DNA of 41,036 bases from Cyanobacteria bacterium P01_D01_bin.156 (GCA_039024555.1 JBCCQQ010000057.1:1-41036); one strand, 5' to 3'. Positions 1-41,036 are shown, numbered from the stretch's first letter. Numbers and translations are program-made. Notes: a model not told the origin generated them from the sequence alone.

Positions 1-960
1 CCAAAGTCGGTTTCTAACTCAAACACCTGTTTGGAGTCGAGGTCTAAGGCATCCCCTGATTCAAATTCCCAGTTGTCATTCAAGCGCCATAGGGCAACTT
101 GCTGAGAGGTCTCATTTTTCCATAGGAGTTGATTGGCCCCTTCAATGGTGTCAGCAGCGATGGCCTGCCAGCCTGGATATTGGTCTGCAACAACCGGATT
201 GCCCTGGTTCATGATGGGTTGAGGATCACCTCCTTCATCCACGAGCAATGTGTTGAAGACATCCACGAGTAAGTCAACGGTTCCCTCGGTTTCAATCTCA
301 CGGGGAGACCCAACCCCGAGTTGAGAATCATCGTTTAGATCCACGCCAAAGTCGGTTTCTAACTCAAACACCTGTTTGGAGTCGAGGTCTAAGGCATCCC
401 CTGATTCAAATTCCCAGTTGTCATTCAAGCGCCATATTGCAACTTGCTGGGAGGTCTCATTTTTCCATAACAGCTGGTTCACCCCTTCAATGGTATCGGC
501 AGCAATGGCCTGCCAGCCTCGATATTGGTCAGCAACAACTGGATTGCCCTGGTTCATGATGGGTTGAGGGTCATCCCCTGCCTCCACGAGCACTGTGTTG
601 AAGACATCCACGAGTAAGTCAACGGTTCCCTCGGTTTCAATCTCACGGGGACTCCCTTCACCCAGCTCAGAATCATCGTTTAGATCCACGCCAAATTTGG
701 TTTCTAGCTCAAATGCTTGGACCGATTCGATATCTAAGGCTTCTCCTGACTCAAACTCCCAGTTATCCTCCAATCGCCATACGGCAACTTGATTTGTGGC
801 CTTGTGTTTCCACAGTATTTGATTCACACCTTCAATGGTATCGACGGCCATAATTTCCCAACCTGGGAATTGGTCAACGACAATTGGGGTGCCTTGAGAC
901 TGGACTAGCTGTTCATTATCTCCAACAGTTACGAGTAATTGTTGCTGTTCATTGATTGTC
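1..960 (-). repeat. Three tandem 345-bp (115-aa) Trp-rich repeats within the giant ORF
   Basis: Units begin at 1, 346 and 691 (CCAAAGTCGGTTTCTAACTC / CCAAATTTGGTTTCTAGCTC). The first two are near-identical and the third is more diverged. They encode GWQAIAADTIEG.NQLLWKN...VA.WRLDDNWEFESG...ETDFGVDLNDD, resembling the cyanobacterial Trp-rich C-terminal domain. Confidence 0.88.
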
Positions 961-18900: not shown

Positions 18901-19853
18901 GTGTCACTACCGGATTCACCATAAAGAGTGTCATTACCGCTACCGCCATAGACAATATCATTGCCACCGTTGGCATACACTGTGTCATTACCGCCAAAGA
19001 CATGAATGCCATGGTAGGAACCATAGCTGCCGCCGTTCCAGTAGGGATCGGTTCTAGCCCCTTCACTGGAACCATACCAGGTATCATTGTCGTTTCCTAC
19101 ATTCCAGTAGACATGGATGGTACCACCACCAATATCATCTCCTTGTCCCCCAAAGTTACCGGGACCGATAAAGGTATGGCCGTCAAATCGAATAACAAAA
19201 GACGAGGAGACATTTTGAAATTCATCTAGATCATCACCGCCAAAACGGTCGTCATAGGAGCCTGGTCGACTAATATCCCAATCATCTTCATCGTCTTGAA
19301 AAGGCCCCCTATCATTATCGATAACTCGAATGGTGCCAGGGTTTGCCTCGTTAATTGTTGCCAGTGAAAATGCTTTATCTGCAGCACTAGTCAGAATTTC
19401 TGTAGAGGTGCTGATATTGCCAGCGGTCACCTCTAATTGCCAATCGGCAGCAGCGGTGGTACCAGTCAAGTTGCTTGATGCAGCAACATCTGCTCCGGTC
19501 AGGTTAGACAGCTCTTCAACAAAGGCCAGCCCATTTTCACCAGCAGCCACATCACAGCCATAAATTAAAAAATCAGCCCCGGGTGCTAGGGCTGACTGCC
19601 AGCTTTCTATTAGCTCTGAATTCTCTTCCAATGTTTCTGGTGTTAGCACCGTTGAGCCCAGCATCAAGGCTGCTTCTGAGCCATGGGAGAAGAGATGAAC
19701 CGCATCTAGGTTTTGATGCTGTTGCAAAACCTCCGTCATGTACTTTACGCCATCTTCCCCAAAAGGAATCGTATAAACCTGGCCATCAAAATTCTGTAGA
19801 GCTAGGTCATTTTGAGCAAGGGATGCATCAATGAAAGCAATGGACTGACTCAT
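3..19853 (-). CDS. Giant multidomain surface/secreted protein (DUF4347 + RTX + Calx-beta + LamG-like + FG-GAP-like + P-domain + Trp-rich repeats), >=6617 aa, 3' end outside window
   Basis: ATG at 19853 gives MSQSIAFIDASLAQNDL...VHLFSHGSEAALMLG...FLIYGCDVAAGENG...LTGADVAASSNLTG...DWQLE (DUF4347 signature). The same frame gives sensible protein at spot checks: ~10400 VFFDLNGNG, ~6250 VFFDANFN, ~3-60 GDALDLDSKQVFELETDF. The ORF track reports no ORF from this start, which is consistent with no in-frame stop inside the window. Confidence 0.92.
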   Translation of the reverse strand, partial: MSQSIAFIDASLAQNDLALQNFDGQVYTIPFGEDGVKYMTEVLQQHQNLDAVHLFSHGSEAALMLGSTVLTPETLEENSELIESWQSALAPGADFLIYGCDVAAGENGLAFVEELSNLTGADVAASSNLTGTTAAADWQLEVTAGNISTSTEILTSAADKAFSLATINEANPGTIRVIDNDRGPFQDDEDDWDISRPGSYDDRFGGDDLDEFQNVSSSFVIRFDGHTFIGPGNFGGQGDDIGGGTIHVYWNVGNDNDTWYGSSEGARTDPYWNGGSYGSYHGIHVFGGNDTVYANGGNDIVYGGSGNDTLYGESGSDTLYGESGNDLLEGGDSNDTLEGGSGNDTLKGDDGNDTLKGGDNDDTLEGGDGSDLLEGNSGSDLLKGGSDGDTLHGGEGNNTIYAGISASADSSTSSHTITSGSGNDTIHGSQGRDVITVDGGTNEIDAYNGDNKVIGGSGQDTIRTGTGNDEIRARGGNDTVYAGSGNDIVTDDTSGGSSAGGNDIFYGEAGNDTLRGEGGDDQLYGGTGNDYLESGDGNDFLDGGSGDDILVYGNVANGDVGPHPDPNNNDAPTLNPNTRNLEEIKVADNSGWRSATGQATVDGGEGLDTLRIVGEYSDFDIATETLANGSMRFTVTDRNNASNQVVATNVEKIEFWNNYTVYPGNPTERELHNRNGIILPIRYDLEVLQHATEQLYGSKDDLKDNNKIGQVKVQLKDWLDPTKDYVIEGSEDEPGTKRDEYSRGNGLAIKYEIHVTGNFGPEETEFLSDKLRFKRINLETGRSTEADGDGLDYVTENFVVVQPGESSAIINILPIVDEIQEGLESVEVRIVSMDRVDKPDGGAGTSAYAYQEGFLYAGIEAANGQDYQAANNAENDIQDGINKGYVLMPVTQNGDRATVQITDSGLFEAGIRLVDEYGFQVTDEMLLQEGSTKVFVGLTSRPTETVTVTIAGQQYLFTSDRNTWNKTYEVTLNGTAGSTVTVDVSSADPFYNALTDPTFTLVTEQSTLQVPEPVALHLGDGNYIQLPNVTLNGDYAIEFWVKPDADGTLLQSNQGTLSLASGKLQGTSAFNFVDNSRNTLTTDSWHRVTLLSVNDQLEIFVDGNRAGSQTIGNNTSLVLQSVGAENNGLQGLVSNLRFWDQLIQDGDVYVGTLQAQYNIDEGSGTTLNNQAPVVSVGAATIAFNQTDALLWKAGVPLADPAFQEIVAEEATAFGLVNRNFDFPQISVTVPSDQQQILEGSDQLAAFELLLDKPAPRGGITVDFDLTNLTLTEAGSLRPTAQSGDSWQNVDFQVTTTIDGELTQTQDVTFGEGLNSSIYIPAGARKGIVYVNALDDQRAEGTQRIQLQLTGVDNADDSRYQVAGDEGTISIVDTDRPGVEILSLQSSFTYNAELDRAEEVNRLEQADRIIVRELDDGAMTLRFNLDDLLWDGQDYQTAEIEITDTAGLTLSETSLSLTDTQRFAVTTVTGDYNNKILSGILTVDGVPQSFSFDLIENQELTDAANLRLNPDAENLQTTFEQGHLLTSSGTAYPVRVRQSSWNEYVYVRLTSAPLETDQDVVVDLTATQSIVGTDEVLLSTDQLTFTAENWDQPQLVGIRGVNDNFNDPNQLGQILAAISVDPTETTDKAYEFGGDRASLLYLNVAVPTAPVEITNDELVQAYQPENPANPNYRFETNAQTRQLTITEGETAQVTIAADPSGQTGSLKGRYKVVEPGLTRALYLNGGDDRLTFEQPVDMGETFTLQLAFRWDGTRDQGQRIQLVDANGHGDVFIGTDGRLEAQFTNAQGATVTIQSDTPLLANEDYVINVVTDGLSTKFYADGQLIGSGSLGATPIAPVAVTSVFGADDTSQVDNFRGVVYGTRLWNRELSQSEIRRFAQASLNLAPVVFTLDEANNQVKVALNPELIDEPLTAPLELTFRRYTYTGNPDPEVSLVTVTFDANNWQATLDVPFNFNSTQSLRADIQQITVQIESQTDQVQNFISNVGDAYELELLRSQHLIDEISPTDLERFGRRANFAEDGAIQGLDYRRLEGVAVERGHSEALPLAGNRYLGDRPTVVAGDLTGDDTADLLVVTEKAGTQFYENTSTGNQVEFTLQDAHQPLVDRDIVGQGFSGSEARLVDVDGDDDLDLVWSQDGGLQVQLNQPADGVAFAESVAAIPLVDQTGSPLGSGQQGDLVGFDFADINQDGNLDAVVLDGNNQLQTYLGNSAFNLMDGLVRMTDETNPFRDVVLPEDQPLALKFGDVIVDGVPELYVYERDGGDDSYWRFLMPEADGSQDIIYRDRTFIDPLTSRAGQIGDLESLTFLNDSGVDSVFLSLENGHYTFGYVTERSNEIELDYSDPQAGAQAVLDIVSLQDNQVELDERVRLQLLSTDDLTTEAGMDRTLDVLIQDDDRPGVTLAYVADNGQTASIVASHQTPPDDAPRSLIEGEQSSGFYVLSLDSQPQENVRLILRNSDSERLQFERIHPLTLSINGDGSLTIDSRLADTSDDYSLRFTSPLIQSVNRDGQGAYQVQLQGDSALALQSAIANKSLSEIQQSATVQSLLQQVGIRVDSNNPTYRLGLGLNAHQLLQERVSVTPQEQLKLNLLPDGWNQQILLRPVAADNLVDNQQSAHPRLAIAIDSSDFVYSSLPTLVAEVPITDTDRADIIINQLDDIREGVDGGQFQVSLNSKPEGTVLITLEPGDINGDNTTALALDTKYYGDTIDLEFTQYNWNAPQTVKVRAQDDNLVTGDLQSYVHATVRSDDPNYAGMAVEPVTVTIRDNDLPSVSAYTVLDASEPGQIGFFGIRLNTDQVRNPEGLKIHYRVRGWASAPASADDYQEYVNLTPEGENYITIAPDQDLGNVVIFPIDDYIAEGFDVTFKPNDVETGSDRISIENHRLIEGSKVVFVTESDDGDIPEGLSDESFYYVRVINDNTVELYSDPNRTQKVNLTSGGVGETRLLDATGKATVEEAKENTKRFEAVELELLSDPNGTNPGYQLAPIDTQASVRIYDNEEVGFRFILPGQQVLDSSSPADKGYLTIAEHPDIDNTEEFSSAVFLVRPLSDPGQVQTGTNVGDDNWISLRFDPRWDQNSAQELQVHLAEEPSFEEDGTQTVNISVYDQYGRKIQFYQRDPEVDNGAGDELTDQLEIEVTKETWAEPIRLKSEVFFDLNGNGEWDAGEHKGVTLSDSRYDFGDDLSQLNVGLDEANFNVSLADFDVNDDGYLTLFETTLRSDQPAGWGIVSSLGNATAIAVQVGDDIGKVAIEGNTDVAVDRWNRFAVFSSFASDTADTDIKLVAEDGVPASTLLPSDYSGDPYASDDLWKQNSVYFDSNNWTRFQRVNLTALDDKEYDIDRILPLEMKVYENEGNDGFYSKRFTNAQSPLVLTVKDRRLDNETVTGSLANGFSKLEEIINNYEIPLVGSLSGKLPPFLTDFIRAFSRNLEEQRYITGPSLATALSDALNEQLDGTGVEVSIEYDADEQTIAMSLAFGQDYDLFEISLDSDLGLPALGLETEGSLASIFHFDLRVGIALNLNERTFTLDISEDEDGNTNTGADANVYLDLNNFKATGNIAFLKAELEQIPLDDFINGHKPQVTIWLDEEANTGEDEQTVTVRAYDIGGDEIDLDLTSGNTFVTYEKTEENWKHPIILEGLDYDSIDELSVDFNGSTRRFRVDWTGENDLQGLKVDARLFSQDPHAFFQEYDGEKDILGNLEKDAESESLLSKGDTHSEAALGVNFSLVGKKTVEVEIERKYAFAIETETEAQTIPTLYTGDKDDGSQALEDFLDDQGPQDGMVSITLEDIDNNSEDINLFTVELFKLVDPNRESFSASAEEDDDFFEGLKLEPINFTLGAVTVDPEDPQPEDPRLPLHRQLNVGGNNNSALMRDVSGYVINFTTGLESGNIETGSDVVFRVTKAQVSDGLPNGTFYYIQPFNEDKAIHQVVDYLVVNGPEPEAEGAAALEVSITNPDAAENDDKNELADLFVIQGDNITLSGAETQGSLSRLEIKNAEKFVVETVAAGTSEPSSEAAQDTYALTETGIPVREAEVGISELGSKAKELFDYTLNGSVGAAFNLVTSVAGNTSFPSLSLDLGVAAQAEKTKAEAADLSLTVGLKDLGLDLGSFITKFAAPVIEAVDSVFEPIKPFVEMLNQDTEFLEYLGLESQFDKDANGEVSTLELALVLSDLSRQRGEAKYAEFFETVVKVIDFIETIEKLSAQLEKGDNLVVPLLDEYHLSLTPGGDEEAGEAGNGETTTEKDTDLPKPATETSAIQHQETKPDLPGTDGIGEQAAESGNENASSFNTLIDKIQGIEGLKFPILDDPVSLVNLLFGKDVNLVLYEVPDLKLELNPRVEFTPFPAYPVKGVLEGRFEVGANLGFGYDTYGFRQWAEADFDLAESYQVFDGFFLTDWTIDSYLSSTDSGIDDKPELYATAEVEAGVEVGEGLTGYFGVGVGANVNFDLEDKGEYQDNIGTSDGKVRGSEIIAGISDPLSLFELYGRIYAFLKALVELDLGLFNVTLYEQKWEFDLFKFQIGGAKQSGAAVQSEIVGATVFFDANFNMKFDEGEPWGVTLGDGSYSFGIDPSEFDIDGDGQLTLMDGQIVVIGGRDKESGLPIINPMVAAPNSDIVSPLTTLATQIAVSNGGDLTAAADTVKTFFNLPDELDLDTFHPINAIRNGTAEEAALGLQVYQSHIVVDSLIYNISRVAGGYSETGMTADLVIEVVDFVAQQLSETAIDDSEDFEERLSNFTEDVVADFYEEEILPELSGNELTEAQAEQSTVITVLSDTYERVAATTVGTGGSVEEVQQAFENLTPLKTALKTDVPAALDQFQQGTLSAEEVTQQSQQTLSQVANKSPVVDSSRLFTSFNPYEGATVGSIFGPTFSDDAGDSFYGVAIVGHIPQINLGYWAYYDSEKALWFTLDQPITADNALVLEADTRLRFIPETSADGAPTPDLTVRLIDQNGQGADSTLKTGDRIDFEEIQTAGGISPYSDTLLNFTTTITLPESSMSNPPSLTQTIADIENLAFAWEDAIPEPQGATVASLFSQYFESGSIYNFYGIAIGDYKFSPSEGVWQYSTNDGDSWTDLSEINPDANDEQLMLRTSTLLRFLPTEDYEGPATALAVNLIDSRVGDGFTSGDTNNIAIDFPNSYTEPLHFQTQVYGVNDAPVSDLEVTFVQSEAIRISDRKSATTADPSPVSGKGDVFPSVITVDGLLGEIEDISLTLEGLNVTADNNLDIWLEGPQGQKIVLLSDAGNGVALNDFTITFNDGGVPALAGNSANLVNNTIYQPTNNTAGGADLDPSGFDTAATSFTQFMGEAGETLNGDWKLYIEDDTDSGVDAEKFGKLLDGWSLTFNRVEGSFSPIQEDSSTPQELTVADLFGSHFTDVDSDSLKGVAIINNAATAAEGQWQYWNGQSWSDVATVLTETEALLLSAATKIRFVPTPDFNGKPGAITGRLIDSSHPNFAVGQVQDARFTTSGGPFSQDTIGKTLTITPLNDAPAVVSDSAPIFPNFIEDTPFTTDNAPTVETVFGSSFRDSIDGGNLNQNTFIGIAIVQDFATINDNRQSDLAIAYEKGHWEVYDIRYGQWVALPSDLSENNAYLVPKTTQIRFNPSDHYNGELPPLTAYLVDNGAGQAVGLGQRIDLSATGVGGTTRYTSTTVTLNGEVEAVNDVQPGINNSSAIQLSEAGQNEDLTSPLPTKSVADLFGPRFADSLLGDADGSDGDQFGYNQEIHGIFNDAIFWGVVVKDVPASTVGTWEYSADGVTWQGVSGWSSGSGLYLPKSYQLRFRQTQEHYNDTRTGVDLGAAHPLVAYLVDGSVVDTSIGNQLENNDSAISAIATATPTPNRSGEVSPISASSLTLEQAIHAVNDAPTLPSMGNLLVDSLVVNSVVEDETNPIYVSGITIADVDANEVDPDGDLTVTLSVDHGRLIVNTAVLDGLNATQVSNNDSNTVTLSGKLAELNTTLAAATAVQYQDDTHFNGEVTLTATVNDNGNAGQGGEKTAESTRSIVIDPVNDSPTIVFDSLSSTLSADEDKTLYIDDIVINDVDAPYHPEGELEITLSVSQGTLTINPNIDDGLTNQDIAYNEDFTEATLTGTVAKIQATLQASKGLGYLGDDHFSGNDTLNITVKDNGNTGVGNPLESSTARAIVIDPVNDAPTVINDSYLPKILRNTLDATGETVSTLFGNQFDDSIDSGSMAGIAIVANAANPITEGNWQYSLDAGTSWQNVPIRSLSQTNAFTLTVSALLRFKPVADYIGKPGHLDVHLIDDSAIVANGELGINLAKTGDPTAYSEDAIALGIYVALSNTDQVDLTINEQQQLLVTVGDNEQLVQSQGTPIVVDQFPGWEIMAVDTIEGVNQILWKHKATNQVAVWRLEDNWEFESGEALDIESVQAFELETKFGVDLNDDSELGEGSPREIETEGTVDLLVDVFNTVLVEAGDDPQPIMNQGNPVVADQYRGWQAIAADTIEGVNQLLWKNETSQQVAIWRLNDNWEFESGDALDLDSKQVFELETDFGVDLNDDSQLGVGSPREIETEGTVDLLVDVFNTLLVDEGGDPQPIMNQGNPVVADQYPGWQAIAADTIEGANQLLWKNETSQQVALWRLNDNWEFESGDALDLDSKQVFELETDF
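3850..4380 (-). other. Proprotein-convertase P-domain-like module in the giant ORF
   Basis: Translation: FPSVITVDGLLGEIEDISLTLEGL...LDIWLEGPQGQKIVLLSDAG...TITFNDG...LNGDWKLYIEDD...LDGWSLTF. Confidence 0.7.
13050..13700 (-). repeat. FG-GAP/VCBS-like Ca-binding repeats in the giant ORF
   Basis: Motifs GDLTGDDTADLLV, VDVDGDDDLDLVW and ADINQDGNLDAVV. Confidence 0.7.
14255..14710 (-). other. LamG/concanavalin-A-like domain in the giant ORF
   Basis: Translation: ALYLNGGDDRL...FTLQLAFRWDG...KFYADGQLIG...NFRGVVYGTRLWNRELSQSEI. Confidence 0.7.
16420..16820 (-). other. Second LamG/concanavalin-A-like domain in the giant ORF
   Basis: Translation: ALHLGDGNYIQLPNVTLNGDYAIEFWVKP...WHRVTLL...EIFVDG...QGLVSNLRFWD. 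Confidence 0.7.
18200..18995 (-). repeat. RTX/hemolysin-type Ca-binding nonapeptide repeats (GGxGxDxLx)
   Basis: 27-bp periodic DNA (e.g. CCGGATTCACCATAAAGAGTGTCA twice near 18884-18934) encoding GGSGNDTLY GESGSDTLY GESGNDLLE GGDSNDTLE GGSGNDTLK... Confidence 0.92.
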
Positions 19854-19968: not shown

Positions 19969-20676
19969 CTAGGCAACAGTGCTAAGTGCAGGCTGAGCCT
20001 CGATTTTTGTCGCGCTACTTAAACCAGGCCGAACAAACTTGTTGTTGACGATGTTGATGTAGTGTTCAACATCGGTTGAGAGGTTTGAAAAATGTGACGA
20101 TAAGCTTTGTCCGCGTTCTGCTGGTGTCTCACCCTTGGCCGCGTAACCGTAGCGACCATTAAAGAGCACAATAGCAATGGTTTTGTCCTCTTTTGTTTTC
20201 ATCATTGCTTCTGTGACGGCCAGCTGTAGTGGTGCCTGCTCACTGGGGTAAACAAGATTGAGCGCCGCCCTGGCACAGTCGTCTTGCCAAGCCCCCGATG
20301 ATAGCCATGTATCGCAAATATATCGACCAGGGGGGTGTTCGGTGGGTAAATAGCCCCTGGCGGTAAAGGTAACCCCTTTGTATTGCAAATTTGGAAACGC
20401 ACGGAGGTATTCCTGGGCAACCGATGATAGTTGTAACAGGGTGTCTCGACCCAGGGCTGCGGCAAACACAATTTGTCTACCCTCTGCAATGAGATTAATA
20501 CCGTTGTTGAAGGTAATCTGTACGGCCTGAGGCGTATGGACTGGCTTTTGAGCAATCTCCCAGTCCTGGGGAATGACACCGCTGTAGCGCAAGATGGCTG
20601 GATTAACCATCGCTGGATTGAGATCCGCCGCTGTAATTGCGATCGCACAATCCTGCGCCATAAAGCTAGGAAACAT
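19969..20676 (-). CDS. Conserved cyanobacterial hypothetical protein (235 aa), directly upstream of the giant gene
   Basis: ORF with motif LNPAMVNPAILRYSGVIPQDWE...QITFNNG, which I recall from cyanobacterial hypothetical proteins. It is co-oriented with the giant ORF and 115 bp upstream of it. Confidence 0.8.
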   Translation of the reverse strand: MFPSFMAQDCAIAITAADLNPAMVNPAILRYSGVIPQDWEIAQKPVHTPQAVQITFNNGINLIAEGRQIVFAAALGRDTLLQLSSVAQEYLRAFPNLQYKGVTFTARGYLPTEHPPGRYICDTWLSSGAWQDDCARAALNLVYPSEQAPLQLAVTEAMMKTKEDKTIAIVLFNGRYGYAAKGETPAERGQSLSSHFSNLSTDVEHYINIVNNKFVRPGLSSATKIEAQPALSTVA

Positions 20677-23198: not shown

Positions 23199-24119
23199 AT
23201 GCTACCCAAGAGCCATAACGCCAGTAAAATTTGCTATACAACCTTAGCGGTTGGATACGAATACAATTTACACGCTCAGCAACTGGTCAAGGATGTATTA
23301 CGCCTATCTCCCAATATACCTATTGTTGTCCTTACTGATCGACCTAATTCTTTCTGTAAAAACCAGAATGTCATTCCTATCAAACATACTATTAAATCGG
23401 TAGGGATATTTCACGACAAACTGCACTGTGTAGAAAAGAGTTTAGAAAGATTTGAAACCTGTATTTTTCTCGATGCCGATTGCAGACTTATTGAGGACAT
23501 ATCGCAATCTAGAGATTGGAAGCCAGGTTTAACAACTAAGAGCTGTTGGAATCTAAAAGAGCATGTCGTTCGCAAAAAGCAATGCAAATTAGCAGAGCTA
23601 GCAGATCTATTGATTTGTGATGTAGCTAAAGAATTTGAACTATCTCTTGATCACTGTAAGTTCATAAACGAAGCTGTCTTTATCGTACGCTCAGACAATC
23701 ACAAGGAATTAGAATTTTTGAAGATTTGGAAAACGTTACGAGACCGTTTTGAATTTAGTGGAGTCTTCTCTGGAGAAGGTGCTGCCATGGGTTTGGCGGC
23801 TGTTAAAGCAGGTCTCAACGTATACAAATATGATGCAGACTATGGTAAAGAAAACGTCAAAGATATTTATAAGGATAAGTTGTTCCATAAGTTCTTGTTT
23901 CACCAAGAACGTGAAGGGTTAACGGATGATTTATGTCAAAAAATCCTTGAATTTGATCGACAAAGGAGAAAAATTCAATCTTTACCATTTGAGCAGAAAG
24001 TCATTAGGAAGACAGTATCGGTGGTATCGCCTACAATGAAAATCCTCAGGCTTGCAAAACTCAAGATCAAAGGCTTTATAAACCCTGTCAATATACCTTC
24101 CCATAAACTGTTTGGTTAA
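23199..24119 (+). CDS. Hypothetical protein, probable GT-A fold glycosyltransferase
   Basis: 306-aa AT-rich ORF with IVVLTD, a conserved K (HDKL) and DxD motif IFLDADC. Confidence 0.6.
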   Translation: MLPKSHNASKICYTTLAVGYEYNLHAQQLVKDVLRLSPNIPIVVLTDRPNSFCKNQNVIPIKHTIKSVGIFHDKLHCVEKSLERFETCIFLDADCRLIEDISQSRDWKPGLTTKSCWNLKEHVVRKKQCKLAELADLLICDVAKEFELSLDHCKFINEAVFIVRSDNHKELEFLKIWKTLRDRFEFSGVFSGEGAAMGLAAVKAGLNVYKYDADYGKENVKDIYKDKLFHKFLFHQEREGLTDDLCQKILEFDRQRRKIQSLPFEQKVIRKTVSVVSPTMKILRLAKLKIKGFINPVNIPSHKLFG

Positions 24120-31954: not shown

Positions 31955-32521
31955 ATGTCTCTCGATTCGACCTATCAATTTAAGCGTCGCGATCGCATTC
32001 GTGCCGATGCCTATACCCTATGGCAGGTGCGCTCCGGTTTGGTGCGTACTGTCACCTGGAGCGAAGAGGGGGATGTTGTTCCCTTAGGGTTATGGAGCCC
32101 CGGCAGCGTTATTGGAGTACCCATCAGTCAGGTAGAGCCTTGCGAACTGCAGTGTTTAAGCGCAGTAGAGCTGGTCCGCTTGCCCGGAGACTATGTGTTA
32201 ACCGTAGAGACATTGCTGAAACATACTGTCCAGGTCAATCGTATGTTGGAAATTATGCACTGTCGCCAGGTGCAGGATAGATTGCTTAAGTTTATCTGTT
32301 GGCTGGCGGATAATTTTGGTCAGGCTACCAGCTGTGGCCAGATAATTTCCATTCGGCTGACCCACCAAGAGATTTCCGAAACCATTGGCACCTCACGTGT
32401 TACCGTCACTCGCTTTATCAAACAGCTAGAAGCAGAAGGGCTGCTGCGCTGGTCAGGGAGAGAAAAATTTGTCAGCAGTCGAGCCCTAAAGGCTCACCAA
32501 AGAGAATTGATGATCGCCTAA
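31955..32521 (+). CDS. Crp/Fnr-family transcriptional regulator (IdiB-like context)
   Basis: Truncated cNMP-binding-like N-terminus and HTH RLTHQEISETIGTSRVTVTRFI. Confidence 0.9.
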   Translation: MSLDSTYQFKRRDRIRADAYTLWQVRSGLVRTVTWSEEGDVVPLGLWSPGSVIGVPISQVEPCELQCLSAVELVRLPGDYVLTVETLLKHTVQVNRMLEIMHCRQVQDRLLKFICWLADNFGQATSCGQIISIRLTHQEISETIGTSRVTVTRFIKQLEAEGLLRWSGREKFVSSRALKAHQRELMIA

Positions 32522-32557
32522 GCGATAGTCATACCAGAGGTCCGTAACGCGTTAGTG

Positions 32558-32592
32558 GCCTGTACTGATTTTTATCAGTACAGGCTTTTTTT
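32558..32592 (+). terminator. Rho-independent terminator
   Basis: 12-bp stem GCCTGTACTGAT-tttt-ATCAGTACAGGC followed by T7, 36 bp after the crp stop. Confidence 0.88.
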
Positions 32593-32792: not shown

Positions 32793-34703
32793 CTAATAGC
32801 ACACTCCTCCTGAGCAGTTACCACCACGGTAAGTAGTCGTGGCAGTAGTATCAATACTCAAGTAATCTTCATCTGTCTGGACAAGCTGGTCTGCATCTGC
32901 AAAGTAGATAGGGACTTCGTCGTCGGCCCATTCCCCATTTCCCAACTCAGCATAAGCGAGATAAGCAACCTGGTCAGCAGGTAGCTGTACTTCTACAGTA
33001 ATTGTCTCTTCTACTATAATTATCTCTTCCTCATTTTCACTGCTACTTATGCGATACACTTCAAAGGTATAAGTATCGTCAGCTCCATCATCGTCAGTAA
33101 AGTAAAGTCGTTTTTTCTCAGAATCTAACCTGACAACAACACCTTTCTCGTCAGAAAGGGTAAAACCACTGATATCAATTTCATAGCCGGTTGTATCATC
33201 ATCTATCGTAATAAACATACCAGGGACTGCCGTAGCAGTGTCCGCATCAAATGTAAATTCTGGTCCATTCTTGTGAGGCTCTACATATGCAAATAACTCG
33301 CTATTAGCTCTAAGATCAATCCCTTCTAGGCCAAGCGTATAGCCAGAGCCACTGATCATTAAATCAGTTCCCAGAAAGTCTTCTTCCAATAGGTCCTCAC
33401 TCTGCTGAGCGTCGTCGTTTGTACCCTTTAGATCGATTTCGTAAGGTGCATCTGCAGGTAATAGATAGGTTGCAGGCACATCGAAACCTAAGCCTCCTTT
33501 AAAGGGAATATCTGTCACTCGCTCATTCTCACCATTGGCATTTCTTAAATTTTCAACAGTCAAATCACCAGGACCAAAGAAACCAATCTCTACATTACTA
33601 GTGCCACCTTTGCAAAAGGTACAGTCATGATAGGAATTAAATTTAGTGGGATCTGTATCTCTGGTATTGAGAAGAGAAATATCAAGTTTTTTAGAAGTTG
33701 CATCTCCTGAATATACAACTTCTGTTGTGGGCGGAGCATAGCGCCAGCTATCTCCTTGAAATTCGATATATGTATCATCAGCTGTTACTTTACCACCTTC
33801 CCGACTAGAGCCATAAACGTAGTTACTATCGTAAACAAAAACGCGTTTTGTATTATCTCCTAAATCCCAAACTTTATAGGGAAGTAGTGTATGTCCCTCA
33901 AACAATCGACCATTTTTATCCTTTTGATAAACACCTATGGTATAAAGTGGATCGACACCTGCATCAAAGATCTTATCTTCCCAGTTACTGCGAGCATTTT
34001 GTAGAGAACTTTCAATCTCTTGCAGCATCTCAGATGGAGTCTTGTTATTTCGATTTTCTTGCGCGTTTTTATAAACTCTATCAATTGACTGCATCGCAAA
34101 TAAAATCGTAGCGTAAGTGTGAAGCTCCCTATCGGTAATAGGCACATCGCTTGCCCGACTTGTTCCTTGTGCCCCATCCTCTAAAACACCACTCATGCTA
34201 ATCACTACAGGATTGGGTCTGTCCCAATTTTTAGTATGATTATGTCTACCGAGCCAGAAATATAAACTGGAAAGTGCCATACCTTCACAAACACCGTGGG
34301 CCATGGACTTAATTTGCTGCTCTAACCATCGACGGGCTGGAGATGTCAGAATACAATTTGACGACCCATTGTCTCCAACCCGTAGATTAGAAATACCCGT
34401 TCCATCAAGGCAGACATTTTCTTCTCCAAACATAAATGCCATTGCCAGGCCGTTAATATATGTTGCATCTCTCAGCCCTTGGGGGGTTGAATAAGTGTCC
34501 AAAATTTTCTTAGTGAGTTGAGAATTTGTGAAGTTAAACCCATCTCGTTCAGGGCCAAAATCATCAAGAATAGCTGTTACTAGGGGCGTTTCTCTAGATT
34601 GGGCGGAGGTTGGCTTAACCTCTCGAAGAAGAAGACCAAATGGAATAGACAGTATAAGGGCAATGAACAAAGTCCGGCAAAATTTGGTAGTCATCAATTT
34701 CAC
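32793..34703 (-). CDS. Probable exported protein with papain-like Cys-His-Asp signature and acidic beta-rich C-terminus
   Basis: N-terminal basic+hydrophobic segment KFCRTLFIALILSIPFGLLL...PTSAQ. Motifs GVCEGMALSSL, EGHTLLPY and VFVYDSNY. GGAG upstream of the GTG start. CDS is secure; the function is inference. Confidence 0.75.
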   Translation of the reverse strand: MKLMTTKFCRTLFIALILSIPFGLLLREVKPTSAQSRETPLVTAILDDFGPERDGFNFTNSQLTKKILDTYSTPQGLRDATYINGLAMAFMFGEENVCLDGTGISNLRVGDNGSSNCILTSPARRWLEQQIKSMAHGVCEGMALSSLYFWLGRHNHTKNWDRPNPVVISMSGVLEDGAQGTSRASDVPITDRELHTYATILFAMQSIDRVYKNAQENRNNKTPSEMLQEIESSLQNARSNWEDKIFDAGVDPLYTIGVYQKDKNGRLFEGHTLLPYKVWDLGDNTKRVFVYDSNYVYGSSREGGKVTADDTYIEFQGDSWRYAPPTTEVVYSGDATSKKLDISLLNTRDTDPTKFNSYHDCTFCKGGTSNVEIGFFGPGDLTVENLRNANGENERVTDIPFKGGLGFDVPATYLLPADAPYEIDLKGTNDDAQQSEDLLEEDFLGTDLMISGSGYTLGLEGIDLRANSELFAYVEPHKNGPEFTFDADTATAVPGMFITIDDDTTGYEIDISGFTLSDEKGVVVRLDSEKKRLYFTDDDGADDTYTFEVYRISSSENEEEIIIVEETITVEVQLPADQVAYLAYAELGNGEWADDEVPIYFADADQLVQTDEDYLSIDTTATTTYRGGNCSGGVCY

Positions 34704-34761
34704 TTCTTTTTCTCCATAATGAACTAACGTAGATTAATAGTCGTAAGTACTTTCTAATTGC

Positions 34762-37700
34762 CTAAATACCTCGACAAATCTGACGATCTTCTTCTTCAAC
34801 AGCCACACTATACTTGAGATAATTTTCAACCCATTTGCATGAAGCAAAAAGTAATCCATTTAGATCTGAATTTAAGAGCATTGTAGATGTCTGCAACTGC
34901 TCTAAATTAAGAGCCCACAATCGGACTGAACTATCCCAACTTGCAGTTGTCAATGTCTGACCGTCAGGACTAAACTGTACTGAACTCACAACATCCTTAT
35001 GTCCCTCAAATATTGCTAATATTTGCCCCTCTAAATTCCAGATTCTTGTGACCTGACCAAATCCTCCGGTAGCAATCATCTTTCCATCAGGGCTAAAACT
35101 TGCGCCCATCACTGTATTTTCATGTTCAAGCACCGTAAGCTCTTCTCCATTTAGATTCCAAAGCCTGGCTGTAGAATCATCTGCAGCCGATACAATAGCT
35201 TGGCCATCAGGGCTAAAATTTACGCCTAGAATCACCTCCGAATGTCCTTCTAAAGTTCGGATCTCTTGTCCTTGAAGGTCTAAAAGTCTAATGACCTTAT
35301 CTACACCAGCAGAGAGTAATGTTTGACCGTCTGGACTAAAGCTAACACTCAGGACTTTATTACTACCCGTAGCTAGAGTTTGCAGCTTCTCCCCGCTTGT
35401 ACGCCAAATTGTAATAGGGTTCTCAAAACCAGCAGTAGCAATTAACTGGTTATCAGGACTAAAACTTACACTCTTAGCCCAATATTCATGGTCAAGAACA
35501 GCTAACTCTTGACCATCTATACTCCATAGGCGAACTGTCTTATCTGCACTAGCAGTCGCAAGCATCTTACCATCAGAGCTAAATTGAATATGAGAGATCC
35601 TGTCAGTATGACCTGTAAGTGTTTGCAATTCTCCTCCGTCAGTATTCCAAAGCTTGACGAGATTATCACTGCCACCCGTAGCTACGATCTCACCGTCAGG
35701 GCTATAACTAATGGTATTAACTTTGTCACTATGGCCTTGTAGCACCTTAAAGTTAGGGGGAGTAACCTGCCAAATTCTAGCTGTTTCATCAGCACTAGCG
35801 GTTACAACCTTACTTCCACTGGGACTAAAGTTAGCGGTTAAAACTATATTTTCGTGTCCTGCAAGGGTCTGGAATTCTTCACCTTCTAAAGTCCATAGCT
35901 TAATCGTGTTATCGCCACTAGCCGTGATAACCGTTTGGCCATCGGGACTGAAGTTAACGCTATAAACTCGGTCATCGTGACTTTCTAGAATTTGCATCTC
36001 CTGTCCTTGCAGGGACCAAAATCTTACTGTGTTATCATCACCCGCAGTTGCAACAGCTTGACCATTAGGGCTAAAGCTAACATAACGAACCCATTCATTA
36101 TGGCCCTGCAAAACTTTCAGGTTTTGTCCTGTTATCGACCACAGTTTAGCAGTTCCATCTCGACTTGCTGTCGCAATAGTCTTTCCATCAGGGCTAAAGC
36201 TGATGTGACTCACTCGTTCATCATGGGCATTTATAGTTTGTTGTTCTTGTCCATCAAGGGTCCACAGTTTAACTGTTCCATCATCTCCTGCGGTTGCAAT
36301 GCTCTTACCATTAGGGCTAAAGCTGACACTATATACTGCCCCATCGTGGTTAGAAAATGTCTGTAACTCTTCTCCATTTAAGTCTAACAGTTTAGCAGTT
36401 CCATCTTCACTTGCTGTGGCAATCATAGTGCTATCAGGACTAAAACTTACTGCATAAACCTCAGCATTATGCACCTGTAAGGTCTGAAGTTCTTCCCCTT
36501 CAAGATTCCAAAGCTTTACAGTCTTATCTGAGCTTGCTGTGACAATCATGGTGCCATCTGGGCTAAATTGAGCACTCCACAAGTCACCTTGGTGTCCTGC
36601 TAGTTGATTTTGTTCACTGATGGAGGAAAGCGCACCTTGTAAGCTTTGAATAACGTTTTGCTTGGTCTCAGGTTGAACTCCGGATAGTTGCTTATGTAAT
36701 TGTTGCCCAGCTCGAATACCTTCAACTAAAGCGTCCAGTTTTTGATCAGACGCATTTAAGGACTGAGAATACCGACTTAGCGCATTAATTTGACCTTCCT
36801 GAACCGTTTCAGCTCGTTTCCACTGAAAGAAAGCTAAAACAAAAGCAATACTGACCACCCCTAACAACGAACGAATCAGCAGCGAGATTTGTTTCTCTCG
36901 TTTAATGCCGACCTCAATAGACTGTCGACTCGCCTGAAAATACTCTTGTTGTAGCTCCGTTGCAGACGGTTGTTTCTTTCCCTGCTCTGCCTCTGTCAAC
37001 CATGTTTCTGCCAGGGCGAACTCATTGCCCCGCAACAACAAATCATTACTCCGCTGTTTCTCTAGCCATTCCAACGCTCGTTGGGACCATCGCGTATGAC
37101 TGCGCACATGCTCCCGATCCGTATCCAAGGTGCGGATCAGCTCACTAAAGTTGGCATAGAAGTCCCCATCGTGTTTTTTAAAGTCGATCCACTGTACCTT
37201 TGCCAACTCTGGATGAAGCGATGCAGAACTCACCAGCTGATCGACAACAGTAACAAACCGTTTTTTCAACTTCGCCGCATGCTCCACTTCGCCAGCACAA
37301 TAGGGCGAATTGACAGAGCTTGGCGAAATCACAAACAGAAAATTATCTGACGCTTCAATGCCTCGATAAATTTCTTGCTGAAAATCTGTACCTGAGGCAA
37401 TACTTTCCTGATCAAACCAGGTGGTCTTGCCCTGAGCCTGTAGAGCATCGTTTAATTTACGAACAAAATCTGAGTCTGCCCGAGAATAGGACACAAATAC
37501 ATCTAAGGCAACATCTGTCGGTTGCTCCAAGCTAGCTTGAATAAATTCCTGATGAAGTGTTGTTGCAGGTTGTTGCGCCCTTGCCTGGGCCAACTTTAAC
37601 CAGGCTTCTGCCTGACGTAAATTATGGCCTCGCAGTAGGATGCTCGGATTCCGCTCCTGACGCTCCCATTTAAATGCCTGGGCCAAAATCATCTTGTGTT

Positions 37701-40110
37701 GCTCATAATAGGAGCTATCCTGCCGCAAAATTTTGATTAGGTCACTTTCATCTTTCCGATAATCAACTTCGAGGACATTATCGGCTAGATCAATATATTG
37801 AATCAATCGTAGCTCTGGTGGAATCTGTTCTGGTGTGACCTCCGTTAGTCTCAGTGGGATAATTCGCTTATTTAAAGACAGCGCATATTCGATTTCCTGT
37901 TGGCAATAGGAAGATTGAAGAGAATCCTCAGAAATCAAATAAACAACATTGTCTGCAGTTTCAATTCCTCGATTAATGGCCTCCTGAAAGTCAACTCCTG
38001 TCTCAATATCCTGTTGGCTACTCCACACGGTAAACCCTTCACGCATCAGGCTTCTTCGCACCTTTACCTCAGTCTCTCGATCTTCCTCCGCATAGGATAG
38101 AAAGACCTTTGTCATCAGGTTGTTGGCATTTTTAATACTTTCGGTAATCAGCTCACAGTGCAAATCACTAGGAATACAAGGAGGTTGTTCATCCATAAAC
38201 CGATTTTTCAACCAGGCTTCTGCTTGTGTACGCTCCTCACCCACCAACAAATATCGAGATTGTTTTTGATTACGTTCCCAGGCCAAAGCCTTCGTTAGAA
38301 ATTCCGTATGCTGTTTCACATAGTCTTCATGCTGATGCAGCAACCCCACCAATCCATCCAGAGACTGGTCAAAATTATCCTCGGCTCGGCAGTAGACCCA
38401 GTTGATTTTGCTTATCTCCGGGACCATATTTTTGAAACTGTTATGTTCCCCTCGTTCCTGGGCTGCTTCCCAATCTGTGTCTTGGCTTCGCGAAGGATTC
38501 CGTTGTTGCCAGGTTTCCCGATTAATTTCTTCAACATGCAAAATCGGGATAATTCGCTTATTCAGTTTCAGCGCTAACTCAATTTCTTTGCGGCAATAGG
38601 GCGAGTTCACCGAATGGGGAGCAATAATAAAAATGAAATTATGGGCTTTTTCGATCCCCGCATCAATCTGTTCCTGAAAATCTACCCCTAGGGGAATATC
38701 ATTTTGATCAAACCATATATTAAAACCATGGTCCGCCAGCTGATCGTGAAGCTGGGTCGCAAATGCTTTACTGTCAGCTCGTCCATAGGAAATGAACGCA
38801 TCAAAGAACTGGTTCATTTCTCGACTACTCTGGATATAAATCTGTTGTAGATCCGTAGCCGGAGAGTCTGTCTCAGTCTGACTAAAGTTTAACCATTGTT
38901 CTGCTAAGGTAAATTCCTGGCCTTGCAACAACGATGATTTAGGCCGTTTCTGTCGATCCCACTGCAGGGCACGCACCAATAGCTGTTTATGCTCTTCGTA
39001 ATAGCCTGCGTTTTCCTTTAAGGCTCTGAGCAACTTAGCTAGGGCCACATGTTGGTCAAGTGTCGTCTGCCCTTGTGTATAGTCAATACACTGCAGCGAT
39101 TTCTGATTCTTAGGAAGAGCCTCTTGATCAATTGGCTCCAACAGAAGTGGAACCACTCGTTTTTTGAACTGTAAAGCATACTGAACTTCTTCCTGACAAC
39201 TTGATGAATCCAGGGAGTGTGGTGACAGAAGATAAATGACATTACTAGCTTTCTCAATGCCGCTCCGAATTTCCATCGACAGATCACTGCCTGTTTGAAT
39301 ATCCGTTGCCTTATCCCATACAGTTAAGCCTTCTCGCTGCAACGACTGACGCAAATGGTTGATGACTAATGTGTCTTCCTCTGCATAGACAACGAAAACT
39401 TGTGTCATAAATCCATTAGCGGCCTTTAGACTTTCAGTAATCAACTCACATTGTAAGTCCGTAGGCACACAGGGAGGTTGTTCATTGTGGAAAGATGTCT
39501 GTAACCAGATTCGAGCCTGTTGAACGGTTTCTGTAGCCAATAAATAATGGGACTGCCGCTGATGCTGCTCCCAATCTGCAGCCTTGCTTAACAGCAGCGT
39601 ATGCTGGCGGACATAGTCTTTTTGGCGGTTGATAATTTTGAGCAAGGACTGTAAGCCCTGTTCGAAATTATCAACCTCGTCTCGCATGTAGACCCAGTTG
39701 ATTTTGCGAATCTCTGGATGCATATTTTGCAAATGGTCATGCAATCCCTGTGACTGGAAAGCCTCCCATTCCGCGTCCGTACCGGAGGAATTCTGTTGCT
39801 GCCAGGTTGCACGGTTAATTTTTTCAACATGAAGCAGAGGGATAATACGCTTTCCCTGTTTGAGTGCCTGCTCAATTTCTAAAGCGCAATACTGCGAATT
39901 AACTGAGTCAGGGGAAATAATGAATAAAAAGTTATCGGCATTATCGATGCCGTCATCAATTTGCTTCTGATAGTTAACCTCAACTGGAACATCTTCAGAA
40001 TCAAACCAGACGGTTAGCCCCTGTTCAACAAGATGATCATGCAATTCCTTGGCAAAGTATTTACTATCTGCACGACCGTAGGAAATGAAAACATCTTGAA
40101 ACGGATTCAT
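34762..40110 (-). CDS. Five-TIR-domain / single TM helix / 14x WD40 protein (1782 aa)
   Basis: TIR starts DVFISYGRAD, QVFVVYAEED, DAFISYGRAD, KVFLSYAEED and DVFVSYSRAD. Hydrophobic segment LLIRSLLGVVSIAFVLAFFQW. Fourteen (F/Y)SP(D/N)G-type ...S.D...LW repeats. Confidence 0.95.
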   Translation of the reverse strand: MNPFQDVFISYGRADSKYFAKELHDHLVEQGLTVWFDSEDVPVEVNYQKQIDDGIDNADNFLFIISPDSVNSQYCALEIEQALKQGKRIIPLLHVEKINRATWQQQNSSGTDAEWEAFQSQGLHDHLQNMHPEIRKINWVYMRDEVDNFEQGLQSLLKIINRQKDYVRQHTLLLSKAADWEQHQRQSHYLLATETVQQARIWLQTSFHNEQPPCVPTDLQCELITESLKAANGFMTQVFVVYAEEDTLVINHLRQSLQREGLTVWDKATDIQTGSDLSMEIRSGIEKASNVIYLLSPHSLDSSSCQEEVQYALQFKKRVVPLLLEPIDQEALPKNQKSLQCIDYTQGQTTLDQHVALAKLLRALKENAGYYEEHKQLLVRALQWDRQKRPKSSLLQGQEFTLAEQWLNFSQTETDSPATDLQQIYIQSSREMNQFFDAFISYGRADSKAFATQLHDQLADHGFNIWFDQNDIPLGVDFQEQIDAGIEKAHNFIFIIAPHSVNSPYCRKEIELALKLNKRIIPILHVEEINRETWQQRNPSRSQDTDWEAAQERGEHNSFKNMVPEISKINWVYCRAEDNFDQSLDGLVGLLHQHEDYVKQHTEFLTKALAWERNQKQSRYLLVGEERTQAEAWLKNRFMDEQPPCIPSDLHCELITESIKNANNLMTKVFLSYAEEDRETEVKVRRSLMREGFTVWSSQQDIETGVDFQEAINRGIETADNVVYLISEDSLQSSYCQQEIEYALSLNKRIIPLRLTEVTPEQIPPELRLIQYIDLADNVLEVDYRKDESDLIKILRQDSSYYEQHKMILAQAFKWERQERNPSILLRGHNLRQAEAWLKLAQARAQQPATTLHQEFIQASLEQPTDVALDVFVSYSRADSDFVRKLNDALQAQGKTTWFDQESIASGTDFQQEIYRGIEASDNFLFVISPSSVNSPYCAGEVEHAAKLKKRFVTVVDQLVSSASLHPELAKVQWIDFKKHDGDFYANFSELIRTLDTDREHVRSHTRWSQRALEWLEKQRSNDLLLRGNEFALAETWLTEAEQGKKQPSATELQQEYFQASRQSIEVGIKREKQISLLIRSLLGVVSIAFVLAFFQWKRAETVQEGQINALSRYSQSLNASDQKLDALVEGIRAGQQLHKQLSGVQPETKQNVIQSLQGALSSISEQNQLAGHQGDLWSAQFSPDGTMIVTASSDKTVKLWNLEGEELQTLQVHNAEVYAVSFSPDSTMIATASEDGTAKLLDLNGEELQTFSNHDGAVYSVSFSPNGKSIATAGDDGTVKLWTLDGQEQQTINAHDERVSHISFSPDGKTIATASRDGTAKLWSITGQNLKVLQGHNEWVRYVSFSPNGQAVATAGDDNTVRFWSLQGQEMQILESHDDRVYSVNFSPDGQTVITASGDNTIKLWTLEGEEFQTLAGHENIVLTANFSPSGSKVVTASADETARIWQVTPPNFKVLQGHSDKVNTISYSPDGEIVATGGSDNLVKLWNTDGGELQTLTGHTDRISHIQFSSDGKMLATASADKTVRLWSIDGQELAVLDHEYWAKSVSFSPDNQLIATAGFENPITIWRTSGEKLQTLATGSNKVLSVSFSPDGQTLLSAGVDKVIRLLDLQGQEIRTLEGHSEVILGVNFSPDGQAIVSAADDSTARLWNLNGEELTVLEHENTVMGASFSPDGKMIATGGFGQVTRIWNLEGQILAIFEGHKDVVSSVQFSPDGQTLTTASWDSSVRLWALNLEQLQTSTMLLNSDLNGLLFASCKWVENYLKYSVAVEEEDRQICRGI
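34910..36610 (-). repeat. 14 WD40 repeats (~123-bp period)
   Basis: Recurrent GGGCTAAA/GGACTAAA DNA motif and GH...FSPDG...TAS.D.T.KLW protein repeats. Confidence 0.92.
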
Positions 40111-40624: not shown

Positions 40625-40911
40625 GTAGGTGCACTCCGGTTTGGTTCGCACTGTCACCTGGAGTGAAGAGGGGGATGTTGTTCCCCTAGGTTTATGGAGT
40701 CCCGGCAGCGTTATTGGCGTACCCATTAGCCAGGTAGAACCTTGCGAACTGCAGTGTTCAAGCGCAGTGGAATTGGTCCGCTTGCCCGGAGACTATGTAT
40801 TAACCGTAGAGACTTTGCTTAAACACACTGTCCAGGTCAATCGTATGTTGGAAATTATGCACTGTCGCCAGGTGCAGGATAGATTGCTGAAGTTTATCTG
40901 TTGGCTTGCGG
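40625..40911 (+). pseudogene. Internal fragment of the Crp/Fnr regulator gene (diverged copy of 32023-32309)
   Basis: Ungapped 287-bp alignment with 22 differences counted by hand. The copy lacks the first ~23 codons and the whole HTH, and has CAG->TAG at its left edge. Confidence 0.9.
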
Positions 40912-40931
40912 CTGAAAGGGAGACACAACAG

Positions 40932-41036
40932 CTAAAGCGTATCTAGGACAGCTTCTATAGCTCTTAGCCCTCGTAAATGATACTCAATTTTGTTTCGGTC
41001 GAGTCTCATCAACGCCTGAACGTGTTTGTGGCAACG
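40932..41036 (-). CDS. Possible 3' end of a gene entering from the right edge
   Basis: Open frame RCHKHVQALMRLDRNKIEYHLRGLRAIEAVLDTL* with stop at 40932-40934. It is too short to assign. Confidence 0.3.
   Translation of the reverse strand, partial: RCHKHVQALMRLDRNKIEYHLRGLRAIEAVLDTL

Follow-up and report, generated by a model that had tools for sequence, protein, structure and literature searches.

The locus considered here raises the question of whether two adjacent genes, designated A and B, encode a receptor and its dedicated partner. They are located in a 41,036-nt stretch of DNA from Cyanobacteria bacterium P01_D01_bin.156 (GCA_039024555.1, JBCCQQ010000057.1), referred to as the window, which is one whole contig (G000:C57) of a 6.6-Mb genome with cyanobacterial relatives. 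A preliminary description made from the sequence alone had recognised two co-oriented genes 58 bp apart, and the open reading frames (ORFs) 34762-40110 and 32793-34703 bear this out. Both lie on the minus strand, with A upstream of B, and a GGAG sequence was found 9 nt ahead of the GTG start of B. The pairing is real and recurrent, it is undescribed in PADLOC, NCBIfam and the literature searched, and it joins a familiar architecture to an orphan family. A and B probably constitute a co-inherited, functionally coupled pair. The features of the two genes are given below, with the residues of B in the 633-aa numbering.

34762..40110, minus strand: gene A, 1782 aa, composed of (TIR + helical unit) x 5, a membrane helix, a helical stalk, 14 WD40 repeats and a C-terminal Cys pair
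39823..40092, minus strand: TIR1 (Pfam TIR_2), Glu present at the catalytic position
39064..39399, minus strand: TIR2 (Pfam TIR_2), Glu present
38518..38796, minus strand: TIR3 (Pfam TIR_2), Glu present, duplicate of TIR1
37777..38106, minus strand: TIR4 (Pfam TIR_2), Glu present, duplicate of TIR2
37135..37500, minus strand: TIR5 (Pfam TIR_2), Glu present
36826..36882, minus strand: single membrane helix (predicted from hydropathy, with basic residues on the N-terminal side), aa 1077-1095
36610..36816, minus strand: juxtamembrane stalk (aa 1099-1167), a conserved part of the receptors in the partner-linked clade
34891..36609, minus strand: 14 WD40 repeats, aa 1168-1740, with the clade signal in blades 8-14
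32793..34703, minus strand: gene B, 636 aa from GTG, exported-type protein of an unnamed family
34599..34703, minus strand: signal-peptide-like N-terminus of B (hydropathy, Kyte-Doolittle value 2.16, and alignment)
33639..34586, minus strand: papain-fold domain of B (family conservation, AlphaFold model and structure comparison)
34287-34289, minus strand: Cys136 of B, predicted nucleophile
33891-33893, minus strand: His268 of B, triad residue
33828-33830, minus strand: Asp289 of B, triad residue
32796..33614, minus strand: C-terminal all-beta domain of B (from the model; no named family)

Linkage and co-inheritance of the two genes

A TIR-helix-WD40 gene was located directly upstream of B, in the same orientation, at six of 63 other B loci (the neighbourhoods of L012-L013 being seen in part). 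By survey, these were L001 (1 of 21), L070 (1 of 20) and L090, L103, L110 and L118 (4 of 22), with the L090 receptor cut by the contig end to its WD40 part. The linked cases derived from genomes belonged to families f1, f47 and f15, and their receptors possessed one, three or five TIRs. An indirect pair is given by the adjacent locus tags Fur0046_00170 and Fur0046_00160 of Cyanobacteria bacterium J069, and the location of both P0169 and P0002 on 18,168-nt contigs suggests another. In a single record, P0036, a three-TIR receptor was fused to B, of which the final two-thirds were present and the catalytic Cys was missing; longer fused forms were absent among 7,988 candidates, a count that carries little weight. 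With six linked loci, two indirect pairs and one fusion, the co-occurrence of the two families proved to be recurrent. Chance adjacency of A and B was rejected on the grounds that the order was fixed across divergent partners, the linked B proteins forming one mainly cyanobacterial branch and being mostly 26-46% identical.

B was present in 48 of 173 genomes of the order, in 31 of 401 genomes of the class sample and in 16 of 401 of the phylum sample, mostly unlinked where examined. The homologues from Methanothrix, Chloroflexota and other cyanobacterial families were unlinked. No B was found on plasmids, on viral contigs, in 89 genomes of family f8 or in 21 congeners.

The relationships of the receptors were analysed for 87 ectodomains, obtained from 138 proteins by filtering to 12-15 repeats, a step in which P0036 dropped out. 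Seven linked receptors together with P0203, whose context is unknown, formed one clade among the 87 with a support of 1.0, even though some members were only 37-42% identical. The clade was also recovered when the tree was restricted to the propellers (1.0) or to blades 8-14 (0.985); blades 1-7 did not recover it. Stalk identity was 52% inside the linked clade versus 28% to other receptors, and a stalk model gave 137, 95 and 91 bits for held-out linked receptors versus 73 bits for an unlinked paralogue of the host genome; the separation was modest, and in another test of the model the top three matches were training rows and hence circular. Three proteins of unknown context scored 143, 88 and 87 bits. 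The distances of receptors and B proteins were correlated across nine pairs (Mantel rho 0.51, p 0.019), with a value of 0.58 for the papain domain.

The predicted nucleophile followed the linkage. Cys136 was kept in all nine linked B proteins, whereas among 29 unlinked ones it was lost in nine, kept in 19 and unaligned in one. All nine losses fell within the linked branch, where they were confined to L104 and one large clade of family f1; they apparently reflect about two events and not many. In the order-level set, 26 of the 29 top loci were without the Cys, and the three keepers consisted of two linked loci and one at a contig edge. L105, near the base, was an unlinked exception with an incomplete upstream region. 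A catalytically dead B clade (L044-L069, L071-L089), in which Cys was replaced by Ser or Gly and in some members His by Tyr, occurred in many family-f1 genomes. It was retained standalone, often with conserved neighbours, and must have a non-enzymatic role.

The surroundings of the two genes include the following features.

32025..32592, plus strand: left direct repeat, consisting of the 3' part of a Crp-family gene (31955-32521) and a terminator-like hairpin
40627..40911, plus strand: right direct repeat, 285 bp, 93% identical to 32025-32309
40912..41036, no strand assigned: one end of a multicopy element, interrupting the right repeat and running to the contig end, with 100% matches on 8 other contigs

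The multicopy element is inferred to be an insertion sequence. The right repeat resumes on another contig of the same genome (C90:19239-18950), which matches 32301-32592 at 95%. In all six congeners examined, the Crp gene was found without A or B, and orthologues of the C90 genes were located within a few genes downstream. On the basis of the repeats and of the congeners without the insert, A and B represent an 8.6-kb insert between repeats of about 570 bp, in which no further ORF of note was found. The GC content of third codon positions (GC3) was 0.40 for A and 0.32 for B versus 0.53-0.60 for the flanking genes, the genome mean being 0.46. The insert would have arisen by single-crossover integration; an integrase-bearing island was rejected because neither an integrase nor another ORF of note is present in it.

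Architecture of A and the family of B

Five TIR_2 stretches, one helix and 14 WD40 repeats were identified in A, and no NTPase was found, in agreement with the architecture proposed in the preliminary description. Each TIR was followed by a helical segment and possessed a Glu in a C-x-x-E motif (5/5), the catalytic position of TIR NADases. The five-TIR form resulted from tandem duplication of a 431-aa two-TIR unit, visible as DNA repeats 1293-1296 nt apart. Because of this duplication, and because linked receptors have one, three or five TIRs, the number five was rejected as a defining trait of the system. The linked receptors L070:10230-14429 and L118:547-4782 have three TIRs, and their propellers gained 10-11 extra Cys.

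The predicted helix of A had a Kyte-Doolittle value of 2.43, the second-best window reaching 0.99, and the WD40 region is inferred to form two seven-bladed propellers. No STAND NTPase (nSTAND1, NACHT or NB-ARC) was detected among the best 25 of 56 Pfam matches. The N-terminal 1070 aa were taken up by TIR units, and the single Walker-A-like string was located within TIR5. A hidden NTPase was rejected for lack of an NTPase family among these Pfam matches and for this location of the Walker A string. The helix-stalk-propeller part was homologous to nSTAND1-WD40 proteins (helix-stalk BLAST E down to 3e-12), and many of the matches carried the nSTAND1 name. In view of this homology, A is best seen as an nSTAND1-WD40 architecture minus the NTPase. 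Relatives in the same genome included four tandem one-TIR-helix-WD40 paralogues of about 3 kb each (G000:C11:64938-77639) and multi-TIR paralogues split or cut off by a stop (G000:C86:7859-12083 and C78:23209-24678).

B had no family in Pfam, PADLOC or NCBIfam. Its profile retrieved 1,354 representatives at 50% identity, and similar Atlas clusters came mostly from Actinomycetota and Chloroflexota. A signal-like N-terminus and a Cys-His-Asp signature had been claimed for it earlier; the former agrees with hydropathy, and Cys136, His268 and Asp289 were conserved in 95%, 99% and 100%, respectively, of those rows among 154 family members that have a residue there. Together with N57, they make up the invariant core of the family. 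The conserved Cys pairs 95/114 and 358/361 are probably disulfides, judging by the alignment, and no propeptide was apparent.

The AlphaFold model of B, obtained with a 30-row alignment, had a predicted local distance difference test (pLDDT) score of 84.9. When residues 37-352 were compared with known structures, papain-clan proteins gave the best results: streptopain with Z 9.3 (root-mean-square deviation 4.1, 181 aligned residues), interpain with 9.0 and staphopain with 8.5. A Bacteroides secretion effector domain followed the best one with Z 9.2. The rows with Z of at least 5 were nearly all papain-like, the values as such being moderate. The papain-like label given to B in the preliminary description is thus upheld by the best Z score and a nearly uniform list. 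In the model, Cys136 opens helix 136-151, His268 is placed within strand 264-279 and Asp289 follows strand 282-288, positions that suit the triad of a papain fold. The top rows, which comprise streptopain/interpain, staphopain and C39-like peptidases, share the modelled fold with B at 7-15% identity, and B differs from them in its additional all-beta domain, for which no confident named match was obtained by structure comparison (Z at most 5.9). Foldseek returned nothing at E <=0.001 for B, and a profile search of PDB sequences gave 0 matches. B is accordingly predicted, from model and conservation, to be an exported papain-fold Cys-His-Asp hydrolase. The possibility that it is a ligand precursor was rejected in view of the conserved triad and the enzyme fold.

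Longer homologues of B possess added surface domains (LRR, NHL, DUF11 and CARDB), and an unlinked homologue with a dead active site (L104:8448-10889) has N-terminal PG_binding_1 and SH3_3 domains. Such surface and wall domains indicate that the family works outside the cytoplasm. Among other homologues, one from Methanothrix (L002:4050-10624) leads a run of small exported-type proteins, and two stand in tandem at a Flexilinea locus (L018:9986-13827).

Membrane topology, proposed mechanism and rival explanations

The preliminary description had placed the TIR array inside the cytoplasmic membrane and both the propellers and the partner outside it. For A, several indirect tests favour this orientation, with cytoplasmic TIRs and a periplasmic stalk and propellers. 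Basic residues precede the helix. A five-TIR paralogue on contig C7 (G000:C7:14137-18618, L122) carries CHASE2 after the same helix as in A; CHASE2 is an extracytoplasmic sensor, and here it replaces the propellers together with further membrane helices, the fifth TIR being without Glu. Only two Cys follow the helix of A, and among the 87 related proteins, six with an intermediate helix being left uncounted, at most three ectodomain Cys were present in 63 of 68 relatives with a hydrophobic helix versus 3 of 13 without one.

The explanation to which we would give slightly less than an even chance is a trans-envelope TIR sensor: the activity or the trapped state of the partner enzyme would be read by the receptor, whose clustering would activate the TIRs. 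A would be a single-pass inner-membrane receptor with its TIRs in the cytoplasm and its stalk and two propellers in the periplasm. B would act on a foreign or damaged envelope protein, or get trapped by it, and the second propeller and the stalk of A would read the product of B or its inhibited or acylated state. The receptors would then cluster, the TIR array would cleave NAD+, and the cell would arrest, die or emit an ADP-ribose-type signal. Most likely, the pair would serve in defence against something that comes in through the envelope. A more specific version, which we regard as unlikely in its entirety, would be a surface immune receptor of cyanobacteria of the filamentous type with a protease co-receptor. 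An ancient exported enzyme would have been recruited as bait, apparently in two receptor clades, and an attack on the periplasm or across it, by a phage tail protein, a predator enzyme or a protease inhibitor, would be sensed via that enzyme and lead to NAD+ cleavage by the TIRs on the other side of the membrane.

A number of observations weigh against coupling of this kind. In the linked receptors of L070 and L118, the helix is shortened and polar (Kyte-Doolittle values of 0.38 and 0.52), and the propellers contain 12-13 Cys, as in cytoplasmic domains. Since the helix is no longer membrane-like in these two linked pairs, the location of both proteins outside the membrane is not universal. Their B partners kept the signal-like N-terminus and have five Cys, and purifying selection acts on the TIR, WD40 and B parts alike (ratio of nonsynonymous to synonymous substitution rates, dN/dS, of 0.06-0.11). 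Either this lineage keeps the pair without co-localisation or the coupling is looser than proposed. The host genome contains at least nine further TIR-helix-WD40 paralogues, none with B, B itself being single-copy, and stalk-like paralogues exist without B. Moreover, 57 of the 63 B loci were unlinked, including at least three situated at contig edges (L014, L102, L117), and 19 unlinked B proteins keep the Cys, so B also leads an existence independent of the receptor. The two one-TIR linked receptors formed a separate pair (0.999) in another propeller clade, implying a second recruitment or domain shuffling. Congruence of the trees is equally expected from co-transfer of neighbours, the P0036 fusion, known from one contig, may be an accidental deletion or mis-assembly, and no named defence genes were found beside the insert.

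Some of these observations suit the view that A and B are uncoupled envelope-related cargo, co-transcribed and co-transferred and with parallel roles, A sensing its own ligand like its paralogues and B acting as a cell-surface peptidase. Most members of both families are standalone, the pair persists after degeneration of the receptor helix, and relatives of B carry wall and surface domains (PG_binding_1, SH3_3, LRR, NHL, DUF11). However, the order and orientation are fixed across partners of about 30% identity and across two receptor clades, the insert consists of these two genes only, and loss of catalysis tracks loss of linkage. As such a combination is hard to explain otherwise, selection on the pair is favoured and we consider the cargo explanation rather unlikely. 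Equally unlikely is a role of B as a processing enzyme or brake that cleaves or modifies the stalk of A, be it to mature, shed or turn over the receptor. The TIRs would then be turned on when B is lost or inhibited, or by the cleavage as such. The stalk is indeed the most clade-specific part of the linked receptors, and every linked B protein has retained the nucleophile, which disappeared inside the clade where linkage was lost. Yet a similar stalk (78-88 bits) is present in one-TIR paralogues of this genome and of congeners, with B in 0 of 21 congeners, and the clade signal of the propellers is independent of the stalk.

The pair could also be coupled and serve ordinary envelope or developmental signalling (sheath, motility or cell-cell contact). 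In that case the TIRs would be scaffolds or produce signals at a low level instead of acting as a suicide effector. In the paralogue described above, CHASE2 is joined to the same TIR array, the host genome has 45 TIR_2 matches, and CHASE2 signalling and adhesin-type genes neighbour the linked loci L001 and L070. Against this stand the patchy distribution, the recent insertion (absence from the 21 congeners and the GC3 shift) and the intact catalytic Glu, all of which are usual in conflict systems. We assign this explanation a lower probability than either the cargo or the brake.

Relation to known systems and other features of the window

No PADLOC system was matched by the pair, and NCBIfam holds no description of it. 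In PADLOC, A matched TIR- and WD40-level models only, and none of 30 B members gave a match. A showed domain-level matches to ThsB models and to ThcB4, the latter reaching 157.7 bits and thus staying below its cut-off of 220. A TIR with the catalytic Glu is shared with Thoeris, but the adjacent ThsA-type effector is absent, B being the only other gene. In contrast to Thoeris, TIR-STING, TIR-SAVED and Cat1, the insert has no ThsA-type effector, cyclase or nucleotide sensor, and A is membrane-anchored with a predicted periplasmic sensor. The stacking of TIRs drives NAD+ cleavage in Cat1 (PMC13434031).

The nSTAND1/STAND-helix-WD40 proteins have in common with A the helix, the stalk and the 14-repeat region, whereas A lacks the NTPase switch and has TIR units stacked before the helix. 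A shares with STAND/NLR proteins the C-terminal repeat sensor and the N-terminal effector, but not the P-loop NTPase. Bacterial Apaf-1-like WD40 sensors, closest in cyanobacteria, have been reported (PMC12803255), and the sections of that paper covered describe no dedicated exported protease partner for Apaf-1-like STANDs.

An analogy to Toll/Spaetzle had been drawn in the preliminary description. Toll and Toll-like receptors (TLRs) are single-span proteins with a repeat ectodomain and a cytoplasmic TIR (PMC7075850). A has this single-span layout in common with them, as predicted, but is reversed, with N-terminal TIRs, WD40 in place of leucine-rich repeats and an enzymatic-type TIR array. Spaetzle is a cleaved ligand. 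The analogy is a loose one, as the partner resembles an enzyme and not a ligand precursor. In tomato, the surface receptor Cf-2 recognises the complex of the secreted protease Rcr3 with a pathogen inhibitor, which leads to cell death, and Cf-2 co-opted an older protease (PMC7468133). On the best reading, the pair would be closer to plant Rcr3/Cf-2 than to Toll/Spaetzle, by an analogous way of working and without homology as a system; B is likewise commoner than the pairing. Cf-2 is a leucine-rich-repeat receptor without TIR. If the guarded-bait version of the trans-envelope sensor is true, the pair would be a bacterial counterpart of the Rcr3/Cf-2 guarded decoy with a Toll-like output.

Neither the receptor-B pair nor a periplasm-sensing bacterial TIR receptor was found described in the literature searched, from which supplements and most subscription papers were excluded; the neighbourhood tables of PMC7159879 and PMC8195603 could list the pair. 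The sections covered of these two papers and of PMC10907252, PMC7075850, PMC12803255 and PMC13434031 deal with TIR, STAND-WD40 and membrane-associated defence, and not with this pair. A trans-envelope sensor, if true, would mean that TIR immunity also covers sensing beyond the inner membrane, in parallel to protease guarding in plants. To our knowledge, the characterised bacterial TIR systems are all triggered in the cytoplasm, and the sections covered mention no exception. The pair also provides a starting point for the study of two large orphan families, the cyanobacterial TIR-helix-WD40 receptors and the papain-fold B family, and the naturally occurring 8.6-kb insert of two genes lends itself to testing as it is, with obvious point mutants.

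The Crp-family gene at the insertion site sits in a conserved block (L135-L140, L141). Judged by eye, its neighbours there are presumably Fur, Dps and IsiA, which would make this an iron-stress region. Elsewhere in the window, a 306-aa ORF of 37.6% GC (23199-24119, plus strand) had no matches in Pfam, PADLOC or NCBIfam. A 235-aa ORF without a Pfam match (19969-20676, minus strand) is located directly upstream of a giant ORF of more than 6,617 aa (3-19853, minus strand), which extends off the contig. The giant ORF contains glycine-aspartate repeats near its N-terminus and by eye resembles a secreted adhesin or surface protein.
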